Shown piece by piece: positions 26,635 through 28,520 of a DNA stretch of 64,000 nt. Location: NCBI GenBank assembly GCA_963750165.1, contig CAVVPN010000004.1:992001-1056000 (forward strand). The letters are read 5' to 3'. A model generated the notes under the pieces. It searched no databases and had not been told where the DNA came from. It worked only from the letters and a program-made list of their open reading frames with translations. Both the position numbers and the translations under genes were made by a program. The first letter of the stretch is position 1. Each line of letters starts with the position of its first letter. This DNA comes from an uncultured Gemmataceae bacterium (GTDB taxonomy: Bacteria > Planctomycetota > Planctomycetia > Gemmatales > Gemmataceae).

Positions 26635-27370
26635 GAACCACTCGTAGTTATAAAATCTGGCTAAATGCTGGAACCCCTGAGTATCCGCTGGTACTCGCCC
26701 CGCCCAGGGGCAGTGACAATCCAGGCGGTGCAGGCAATCAGCAGGAAAGGCCGGTGTGCTGGATGCTGTTCGTGGATCGAATCCCTGAGTCCGTCGGTTA
26801 CTACTTTGCTGGTTTCGTGGATGGCGAAGGAAGCTTTAACATCAGCTTCCGCAAGCGACCCGACTACAGAATCCCTTGGAAAGTTTCGTTGTGCTTGAAC
26901 GTGTCCCAGAAAGACCGTTCAATCCTGGCCTTGCTCAAGGATCATCTTGAGTGCGGCACGATTCGTTACAAGTGTGACGATGTCTGGTTCTTCGAGGTGA
27001 ACAACCTCGTCTCCATTCACGGAAACGTCATCCCTTTCTTTGAACGCTTTCGCTTCCTATCCGCCAAGAAGAAACGCGATTTCGCGATCTTCAAGCGGAT
27101 GGCTAAACTTCTAGCTGAGGGAGCGCATCTGAACAAAGAAGGAATCGTCGAGTTACTTAAACTTCGACGGAAAATGAATGACGGCGGCAAACGCAAGTAC
27201 GACGATCAGGCGGTCTTGAATGCATTTGACATCCCGGAATCCTCAGAGACTATACGCCAGACCTCGGAAGCCAAAACTTCTGGGGATGATATAGTCCGAC
27301 CTGCATGGCGACATGCAGAGCTGGGCAGAAATGACCCGGCCCAACCTGCTCAAGGTTGAGTAACAACGTG
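26635..27370 (+). mobile_element. Group I intron L1917 (736 nt, IB-like) with homing endonuclease
   Basis: Interrupts gtaactat|gacggtcc. P1 taactaU:Gtagtta; P aaatgctgg; Q aatcagcagg; R tcagagacta (27243); S gatgatatagtcc; terminal G. Confidence 0.93.
26754..27359 (+). CDS. Single-motif LAGLIDADG homing endonuclease
   Basis: YFAGFVDGEGSF motif, VSQKD, K..DF..F, HL.KEG. Start could be 26754, 26763 or 26772. Confidence 0.92.
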   Translation: MCWMLFVDRIPESVGYYFAGFVDGEGSFNISFRKRPDYRIPWKVSLCLNVSQKDRSILALLKDHLECGTIRYKCDDVWFFEVNNLVSIHGNVIPFFERFRFLSAKKKRDFAIFKRMAKLLAEGAHLNKEGIVELLKLRRKMNDGGKRKYDDQAVLNAFDIPESSETIRQTSEAKTSGDDIVRPAWRHAELGRNDPAQPAQG

Positions 27371-27404
27371 GACGGTCCTAAGGTAGCGAAGTTCCTTGTC
27401 GGGT

Positions 27405-27674
27405 AAGTAACATTGCCCGGGGCAAGAGCGATCTTGTCCATTCAACCGGCTCAAATCGGTGGAGCCCTCCCGGCACTTGCAGGAGTGTCGCGGGTAATAC
27501 CGAGGGTAAGATTGCCCCAGCAATCCCCGTAACGACTCAGGGGTGAGATCCCTGGATGAAGCTTCCTGGCTTCATAATACGCCGGCCCTGACGACGCCCA
27601 ACGGTATGATCTTCTCAGTCATCCGCGTCAGGTGAACGTATAGTCTACGCCACGGGAAACCGTGGACAAGCGTG
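27405..27674 (+). mobile_element. Group I intron L1951 (270 nt, IA-like, no ORF)
   Basis: Interrupts tcgggt|aagttccgac. P1 cgggU:Gcccg; R cccgtaacgact; S gtatagtct; P9 ccacgggaaaccgtgg; terminal G. Confidence 0.9.
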
Positions 27675-28225
27675 AAGTTCCGACCTGCATGAATGGCGTA
27701 ACGACCGGATCACTGTCTCCACGAGCGACTCGGTGAAACTGTAGTAGTCGTGAAGATGCGACTTCCCCGCAACTAGACGGAAAGACCCCGTGAACCTTTA
27801 CTGCAGCTTAGTATTGGGCTTAGGCCCAGCATGCGTAGCGTAGGTGGGAGCCTGTGAACCGTGATCTCCGGATCATGGGGAGGCGACAAATGAAACACCA
27901 CCCTTGTTGTGCTTGAGTTCTAACCCCGACCCGTGAACCCGGGCGGCGGACAGTGCTAAGTGGGCAGTTTGACTGGGGCGGTCTCCTCCTAAAAGGTAAC
28001 GGAGGAGTTCAAAGGTACCCTCAGCCCGGTCGGCAATCGGGCAGCGAGCGTAAAGGTAGAAGGGTGCTTGACTGCGAGTCCCATCAGACGAGCAGGTGCG
28101 AAAGCAGGACTTAGTGATCCGGCGGTGCTGGATGGAAAGGCCGTCGCTCAACAGATAAAAGGTACTCCGGGGATAACAGGCTTATCTCCTCTGAGCGTTC
28201 ACAGCGGCGAGGAGGTTTGGCACCT

Positions 28226-28520
28226 TAACACATCGGGGTGCTGCGGCAGCAATGCCGTACCAACAAATCGGCTTATAACGGTGGACCCGTCCGTGGTGCT
28301 GTGATTGACCACACCACGCGGCAACACCGTGGGAAGTCTAACGTCAATTTGATTGACGGATGACCCCGTAACGACTGAGTCGAAAGACGAGAGTTTCCCG
28401 ATTCGGGAAGCTAATACGCCGACGCCTGCCAGCCCAAGTCAGGTTATGATCCGAGAGGATCTACGACCGACGGCAGGATGATGATATAGTCTACGCCACG
28501 AGAAACCGTGGAATTTGGTA
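28226..28520 (+). mobile_element. Group I intron L2500 (295 nt, IA-like, no ORF, 3'-terminal A)
   Basis: Interrupts ggcacct|cgatgtcggc. P1 caccU:Gggtg; P10 acatcg:cgatgt; R cccgtaacgact; S gatatagtct; P9 ccacgagaaaccgtgg. Confidence 0.9.

Follow-up and report, generated by a model that had tools for sequence, protein, structure and literature searches.

Three group I introns in the only 23S rRNA gene of a Gemmataceae-type planctomycete

How can a bacterium build a working ribosome when the only 23S ribosomal RNA (rRNA) gene in its assembly is interrupted in the loop of helix 69 (H69), in H71 and in the peptidyl-transferase centre? The question is raised by a 64,000-nucleotide stretch of DNA from an uncultured Gemmataceae bacterium (GenBank assembly GCA_963750165.1, contig CAVVPN010000004.1, positions 992,001 to 1,056,000), here called the window, whose own numbering is used throughout. 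Its 23S rRNA gene (24747..28920, + strand) carries three large insertions, I1, I2 and I3, at the sites L1917, L1951 and L2500. The explanation that we regard as very probable is that they are three independent group I introns, each of which would be spliced out to restore a canonical 23S rRNA in this Gemmataceae-type planctomycete.

Insertion sites and the single 23S rRNA gene

The gene matches the Rfam model RF02541 with 2429 bits over model positions 1-2925, and its 4174 nucleotides (nt) make up a full-length bacterial large-subunit (LSU) rRNA gene. The genome to which it belongs, G000, is a 9.62-Mb assembly of 12 contigs with an estimated completeness of 93.3%, in which a search of the whole assembly found a single LSU, a single small-subunit (SSU) and a single 5S match. 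The 23S gene sits within a contig of more than 1 Mb (the window is C4:992001-1056000). Since it is the only 23S gene in the assembly, splicing of I1, I2 and I3 is presumably obligatory for a functional ribosome; and because they interrupt the H69 loop, H71 and the step from U2500 to C2501, a working ribosome almost certainly needs their removal.

Alignment with cmscan gave insertions of 737, 271 and 303 nt, the third junction being placed imprecisely. All six junctions were fixed by direct comparison with intron-less 23S genes of relatives; the same region of the gene had been sought with a DNA query in 40 related genomes and was matched in 27 of them (28 of 41 counting G000), where the 23S gene is uninterrupted in most cases. 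I1 (26635..27370, +; 736 nt) follows U1917 in the H69 loop and ends in G. A 34-nt exon (27371..27404, +; Escherichia coli positions 1918-1951) separates it from I2 (27405..27674, +; 270 nt), which follows U1951 in H71, contains no open reading frame (ORF) and also ends in G. I3 (28226..28520, +; 295 nt), likewise ORF-less, follows U2500 in the peptidyl-transferase centre and ends in A. These are exactly the sizes and outer coordinates given by the first-pass annotation, which had proposed from the letters of the window that the gene carries three group I introns and had named an alignment to intron-less planctomycete 23S genes as a check. Its estimate of about 2.87 kb for the gene freed of the inserts agrees with the 2873 nt found here (4174 - 1301).

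At I1 the 5' exon ends in AACUAU and the 3' exon begins with GACGGUCC. The relatives read CUAUGACGG here, so position 1918 is G in this lineage and I1 ends in G at 27370; the ligated form would be CUAU/GACGG. I2 stands between GUCGGGU and AAGUUCCGAC (ligated form GGGU/AAGUUCC), and I3 between GGCACCU and CGAUGUCGG. Because letters are repeated at their edges, the junctions of I1 and I2 can formally slide, by 1 nt and by up to 4 nt, respectively, and both were settled by the rule of a U.G pair at the 5' site and a terminal G at the 3' site. The junction of I3 has no such freedom, its 5' flank being canonical only up to U2500 and its 3' flank only from C2501. Alternative I3 junctions that would yield a terminal G were considered and rejected: each adds or changes bases at 2499-2501, which are canonical in 24 of 24 uninterrupted loci of relatives.

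Folds and families of the three introns

In each of the three inserts the P1 helix is closed by a U.G pair at the 5' splice site, and P7 and P9 elements can be found, as the first-pass annotation had described. The guide of I3 lies at 28230..28241 (+). Its first half, ACAUCG (28230-28235), pairs as P10 with CGAUGU of the 3' exon (28521-28526), and its second half, GGGUGC (28236-28241), pairs as P1 with GCACCU of the 5' exon (28220-28225), so that P1 and P10 together make 12 contiguous pairs that fix the junction U2500/C2501. J6/7 and the 5' strand of P7 (GUAACGACU) lie at 28368..28376 (+), and the 3' strand of P7 (AUAGUC) at 28486-28491. I2 has the P1 helix CGGGU/GCCCG. It shares with I3 the J6/7-P7 segment, two hairpins, P7.1 and P7.2, that fold between the 5' strand of P7 and P3', the motif AAUACGCC leading into P3', and the segment from P7' to P9. 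The guanosine-binding G-C pair of P7 is present in both (GACU/AGUC).

A pattern built from two motifs common to I2 and I3 matched at least 120 places in a collection of species-representative genomes, and 80 loci were fetched. When these were placed by BLAST against an intron-less 23S gene, many fell within 23S genes at L1951 or L2500 and others at about L2449, L2504, L2593 and L2656. Their hosts are Patescibacteria and metagenome-assembled genomes (MAGs) labelled Planctomycetes (Gemmataceae, Planctomycetaceae, Mariniblastus), Gammaproteobacteria, Actinomycetota, Saprospiraceae, Thermoleophilia and others. A BLAST search of I3 against 400 genomes of the phylum returned G000 itself and one 28-nt match, a result that is no measure of how far the family has spread.

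For the L2500 site we aligned I3 with those 15 loci in which both junctions were present and the intron did not exceed about 410 nt; one of 846 nt (L103) was excluded. The piecewise fold of I3 was mapped onto this alignment. In this set 86.4% of the cells are paired, against 37-42% when the partners are slid, and 53 of 93 pairs have changed on both sides; the observed values were reached by none of 500 shuffles. Helices P2, P5a, P7.1, P7.2, P8 and P9 covary, and P1, P3, P4, P6 and P7 are conserved. Over the 16 sequences P1 is paired in 100% of cells and P10 in 97.8%, with alternation of C-G and U.G, and compensatory changes accompany the pairing of P7.1 (93.8%) and of the base of P7.2 (95%). 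At L1951, I2 was aligned with all 13 complete L1951 introns fetched, which come from other bacteria, and 74.7% of the cells are paired; sliding the partners lowers this to 34-44%. Pairing in the core helices amounts to 92-100%, and compensatory changes occur in P2, P3, P4 and P8. The peripheral helices align poorly (43-57% paired) because most members carry a LAGLIDADG ORF in P8. The U.G pair of P1 is invariant in 16 of 16 L2500 and 14 of 14 L1951 sequences; P7 is invariant in the same 16 and 14, in part by selection, as the scan pattern required its 5' strand.

In both introns the conserved core, P3-P4-P6 and P7-P3'-P8-P7' with its P3/P7 pseudoknot, is present and backed by covariation. The shared anatomy and the covariation argue that I2 and I3 are real members of one structured group I family. 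For this family "IA3-like" seems to us the best name, on account of P7.1 and P7.2 and of the label IA3 that the literature gives to the Coxiella L1951 intron.

The two introns also share a stretch of 28 nt from P7' to P9 (27639-27666 in I2, 28485-28512 in I3) with 96% identity, 850 bp apart. We considered whether I2 might have been copied recently from I3 and set the idea aside: over its 5' half I2 most resembles other L1951 introns (0.69-0.73 identity). At its 3' end L2500 members (0.74-0.79 identity) are marginally nearer to it than L1951 introns (0.73-0.74), and the comparison as a whole is not decisive. The 28-nt identity might, as a faint suggestion from the letters, reflect local gene conversion between the two introns.

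I1 is of another kind. Its P1 (26629..26649, +) pairs the exon bases AACUAU (26629-26634) with the guide GUAGUU (26644-26649), the U1917.G pair closing the helix at the 5' splice site. P3, P4, an extended P5, P6, P7, P8, P9 and two further 3' hairpins were located, and there is no P2; the guanosine-binding G-C pair is present in P7 (GACUA/UAGUC). An ORF of 198 amino acids (aa) from an ATG (26763..27359, +), or of 201 aa from the GTG at 26754, begins in the loop L6 and reads through P7, P3', P8 and P9. It matches the Pfam family LAGLIDADG_1 (PF00961) at 1.8e-17 with 64.6 bits (cut-off 23.1), over profile positions 2-100 of 102. The protein has a single LAGLIDADG motif (...FAGFVDGEGSF...) with the acidic residue present, and it matches each half of I-PanMI, I-SmaMI and I-OnuI in the PDB (1e-33 to 1e-20). 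I1 would thus be a mobile intron of the plastid and bacterial L1917 type, whose single-motif endonuclease would work as a homodimer and drive homing by cutting the near-palindromic H69 rDNA of intron-less genes; the protein may also aid folding.

A scan of metagenomes with the core pattern of I1 gave 37 loci. Among them L174, an L1917 intron of 728 nt, has a homologous ORF that is laid out as in I1 and whose start aligns with the ATG at 26763, and it shows compensatory changes in P9. The remaining loci for the most part carry this P4-P6 core elsewhere, in introns of tRNA genes or in introns at about L1923 of the 23S gene. The structure and this comparison indicate that I1 is a group I intron of the L1917 kind, with thin covariation that comes from one close homologue. 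The group I identity that the first-pass annotation had assigned at L1917, L1951 and L2500 is thus borne out by structure and covariation, less amply for I1.

Among the metagenome loci, L162, L173, L185, L186, L188 and L193 have an I1-like P4-P6 core inserted after GUAACUAUAACGGU, at about L1923, with LAGLIDADG-like ORFs, and L161, L177 and L182 have a similar intron after GGUAACUCUGACCGU. The genome itself holds a further intron with a P4-P6/P7 core much like that of I1. It lies outside the window, on contig C3 (locus L002, about 1478-1790, +), where a group I intron of about 230 nt splits a tRNA-Lys(UUU) gene between anticodon positions 34 and 35; its score against the Rfam group I model RF00028 is a sub-threshold 34.1 bits, and the gene is not called by ARAGORN. 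About 14 similar tRNA-intron loci are found among the metagenome matches to the I1 core pattern. To our knowledge no case of a tRNA-Lys group I intron is on record. Four bacterial tRNA genes with group I introns are mentioned, without being named, in a passage of Haugen et al. (2007, PMC1995217).

Splicing and the terminal A of I3

Each intron would leave the pre-rRNA by two transesterifications that yield the canonical 23S, and in I2 and I3 the intron's own guide sequence would direct it to its site. For I3 the second step needs separate treatment. Its junction cannot slide and its 12-pair guide spans both exons, so the last base of the intron (28520) is A in place of the nearly universal terminal G (omega-G), with which I1 (27370) and I2 (27674) end. 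The first-pass annotation had the site, the size, the U.G pair and the P7 and P9 elements of I3 right and missed this A. I3 is not alone in it. Among the fetched loci that include the 3' end of an L2500 intron, 14 of 19 end in A (13 in GUA, one in AUA) and 5 in G, and they come from several phyla; the L1951 introns, I2 among them, end in G in 14 of 14 cases. In A-ending and G-ending L2500 introns alike the guanosine-binding pair of P7 is G-C. The two bases before the end of the L2500 introns can pair, as P9.0, with the two bases after P7', and in one member AU with GU replaces GU with AC or GC, the pairing being kept through a change on both sides.

In the Tetrahymena ribozyme a change of the terminal G to A blocks exon ligation unless the guanosine pocket is changed too. 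In I3 an exogenous G would start the reaction in the normal G-C pocket, and ligation would then take place beside the terminal A. What holds that base is presumably the guide, with its 12 pairs in P1 and P10, together with the 2-pair P9.0, and not binding in the G pocket; we infer that P10 and P9.0 position the 3' splice site. On balance, and with clear reserve, we lean towards the view that the L2500 introns, including I3, are a natural and phylogenetically widespread ribozyme lineage that ligates exons beside a terminal A with a canonical G-C pocket. If this is true, recognition of a terminal G would be dispensable where a long contiguous P1-P10 guide (12 pairs) and P9.0 hold the 3' splice site, and in this genome the A-ending state would be under the strongest possible selection, since I3 interrupts the only 23S gene within its peptidyl-transferase centre. 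Being ORF-less, 295 nt long and present in a single gene copy, I3 would also be a clean natural example on which to test how a group I intron fares when it has no terminal G.

The A-ending lineage is the one feature of this locus that might surprise a specialist, and it has a published precedent. A Coxiella 23S intron "lacks the canonical omegaG" and is nevertheless called self-splicing in the title of Raghavan 2007 (J Bacteriol 189:6572), as that title is cited in PMC11270868 and PMC11019260. Our literature search on omegaA and omegaG returned only citations of this title, and PMC5344465 has nothing on terminal nucleotides.

Several points weigh against the reading of three group I introns that are spliced out. 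None of the introns reaches the Rfam gathering score of 50 bits for RF00028. I3 matches the whole model with 31.9 bits (E about 1e-5) and I1 scores 22.7 bits (E 0.005-0.01), both below that cut-off, and I2 has no match to the model even at E-value thresholds. With matches that are sub-threshold or absent, the group I identification rests on anatomy and comparative structure; the covariance-model check that the first-pass annotation had suggested thus supports I3 and I1 in part and I2 not at all. I3 has no terminal G, which model ribozymes need for ligation, and its binding pocket is unchanged. Precise ligation at U2500/C2501 is assumed here from the conservation of the site. An assembly that is 93% complete could miss a second, intron-less rRNA operon. 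Finally, the presence of an intron does not equal its removal: the Simkania L1931 intron was reported to be unspliced, according to a title cited in PMC1995217 and PMC11270868. Twenty metatranscriptome runs from soil and groundwater contain 0.32-0.36 of the words sampled from the locus, about the share of its exons (900 of 2201 nt), a result that gives no evidence on splicing.

One alternative, for which the terminal A speaks, is that I3, and perhaps the other inserts, are cut out without ligation of the exons or by host nucleases. The mature 23S rRNA would then be fragmented at position 2500, as with intervening sequences processed by RNase III, and an A at the end of I3 beside an unchanged G-C pocket would be tolerated since the second transesterification goes unused. 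Functional fragmented 23S rRNAs do exist for intervening sequences, as a passage of PMC4990558 states; on the other side, the Coxiella intron with no terminal G is described as self-splicing in the title already mentioned (Raghavan 2007). The L2500 family has also kept P10 (six pairs with the 3' exon) and P9.0, with compensatory changes, and these elements serve only the docking of the 3' splice site and ligation. A chain break between U2500 and C2501, at the core of the peptidyl-transferase centre, has no precedent known to us; this too counts against fragmentation, which we regard as improbable.

It is also conceivable that the working 23S comes from an intron-less operon in the unassembled 7% of the genome and that the copy with the introns is decaying or silent. 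The 12 contigs and the completeness of 93.3% leave room for such an operon, and some relatives (G019, G023, G027) have two to four rRNA copies. Against this, the copy in the window scores 2429 bits over the full model, and its exons are undamaged, with 83-93% identity to relatives over 551 nt and up to 100% in the flanks; the intron cores, the guides and the endonuclease ORF are intact as well. Exactly one 16S, one 23S and one 5S gene were found, the 23S inside a contig of more than 1 Mb, and any second copy should in time have been converted by the homing endonuclease. A second, intron-less source of 23S rRNA therefore strikes us as very unlikely. An assembly chimera with inserts from other organisms of a mixed sample is scarcely credible: although these intron families are found in many bacteria that co-occur in soil and water, the sites are exact to the base, the guide of each insert matches this gene's own exons, the inserts (0.51-0.55) differ little from the rRNA (0.56) in G+C content, and a genome of the same family, G001, has a homologous L2500 intron, with 86% identity over a stretch that includes the first 116 intron bases.

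Precedents and relatives

Parts of this arrangement have parallels in print. In Coxiella two introns flank a 34-nt exon and are spliced, according to passages of PMC4990558 and PMC10136302; the second of these sources labels the L1951 intron IA3, and a table in PMC1995217 lists it with 720 nt and a 157-aa endonuclease. The Gemmataceae gene resembles this arrangement in having L1917 and L1951 introns around a 34-nt exon in a single-copy 23S gene, the L1951 intron being IA3 in Coxiella and IA3-like here, and in having one intron that departs from the canonical terminal G. It differs in that its L1951 intron is ORF-less and 270 nt long, with the endonuclease in the L1917 intron instead, in that the terminal G is missing from a third intron, at L2500, and in its host, a free-living-type planctomycete with a 9.6-Mb genome. 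The same Coxiella-type arrangement is found in L038, a non-CPR MAG labelled Thermoleophilia (CPR, Candidate Phyla Radiation), where the same 34-nt exon has on one side an L1917 intron of about 340 nt, a length that leaves no room for an endonuclease ORF, and on the other an ORF-bearing L1951 intron of 714 nt.

Synechococcus sp. C9 likewise has three group I introns in one LSU gene, at L1917, L1931 and L2593 (Haugen et al. 2007, PMC1995217, in the passages on this strain). Its L1917 intron, as described there, is 743 nt long, has no P2 and carries a single-motif LAGLIDADG ORF that runs from P6 through P7, P3 and P8 into P9, which is the layout of the 736-nt I1. The other two sites differ, L1951 and L2500 here against L1931 and L2593, and all three C9 introns contain endonuclease genes where the Gemmataceae gene has one. 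In insertion site and in the single-motif type of its endonuclease I1 resembles the L1917 introns of plastids and bacteria, which a passage of PMC11019260 labels IB4, with LAGLIDADG genes and with Pseudothermotoga thermarum and Synechococcus sp. C9 among the bacterial members; for I1 the subgroup label would be IB4 after that source or IC1-like after Haugen 2007.

In the 23S genes of CPR bacteria (Patescibacteria) group I-type insertions cluster around H69-H71 and the peptidyl-transferase centre, several to a gene (Tsurumaki et al. 2024, PMC11270868). LAGLIDADG_1 positions named in the passages concerned are 1917, 1931, 1952, 2593, 2604 and 2657; position 2500 and the terminal nucleotide are not named in them. 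The clustering is shared by the gene studied here, and many of the fetched L1951 and L2500 relatives of I2 and I3 come from such genomes, whereas the present host is not a CPR bacterium.

Our literature search, judged by title and abstract, found no paper on rRNA group I introns in planctomycetes and none that names L2500 together with a group I intron. The first-pass annotation had called three introns in a planctomycete-like 23S gene undescribed. The planctomycete-like nature of the host is supported: over 1200 nt a 23S locus of the same-family genome G001 shows no difference from a record labelled Gemmataceae. As a general statement the claim was too strong, given the trio of Synechococcus sp. 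C9, the Coxiella pair and the occurrence of the I2/I3 family at L1951 and L2500 in many phyla. All three introns belong to known kinds; what is new is the host and the combination. The value of the finding is incremental. There are precedents for each kind of intron, for several introns in one gene and for an intron that ends in A. The finding adds a large-genome Gemmataceae-type planctomycete to the bacteria whose only 23S rRNA would depend on several ribozymes, and it places rRNA group I introns beyond the CPR bacteria, thermophiles, cyanobacteria and intracellular pathogens.

Among 19 related genomes with a locus spanning positions 1917-2500, three have inserts of group I size. G001, in the same family, has a 408-nt insert at L2500 (L009), a homologue of I3 that ends in GUA; G036 has one of about 650 nt at about L1931 (L014), and G026 has two, at about L1934 (about 930 nt) and about L2511 (about 860 nt; L015). 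With inserts in three of 19 relatives, rRNA introns recur in this order. None of these 19 loci has an insert at L1917 or L1951, or three inserts, and the combination of L1917, L1951 and L2500 is unique among the genomes searched. In another relative, G034, the 23S gene has about 200 extra nt at about E. coli position 1240, near helix 45, a classical site of RNase III-processed intervening sequences (L021), and in G031 the match is broken at the same reference position (L018).

Around the 23S gene of the window the Rfam scan placed tRNA-Ile(GAU) and tRNA-Ala(UGC) genes (24068..24235, +) just upstream and a 5S rRNA gene (29131..29239, +) downstream. The sole 16S gene of the genome (L158, G000:C11:1139049-1140499) is 1451 nt long, has no insertion and lies on another contig, so that the 16S appears to be unlinked from the 23S-5S unit.

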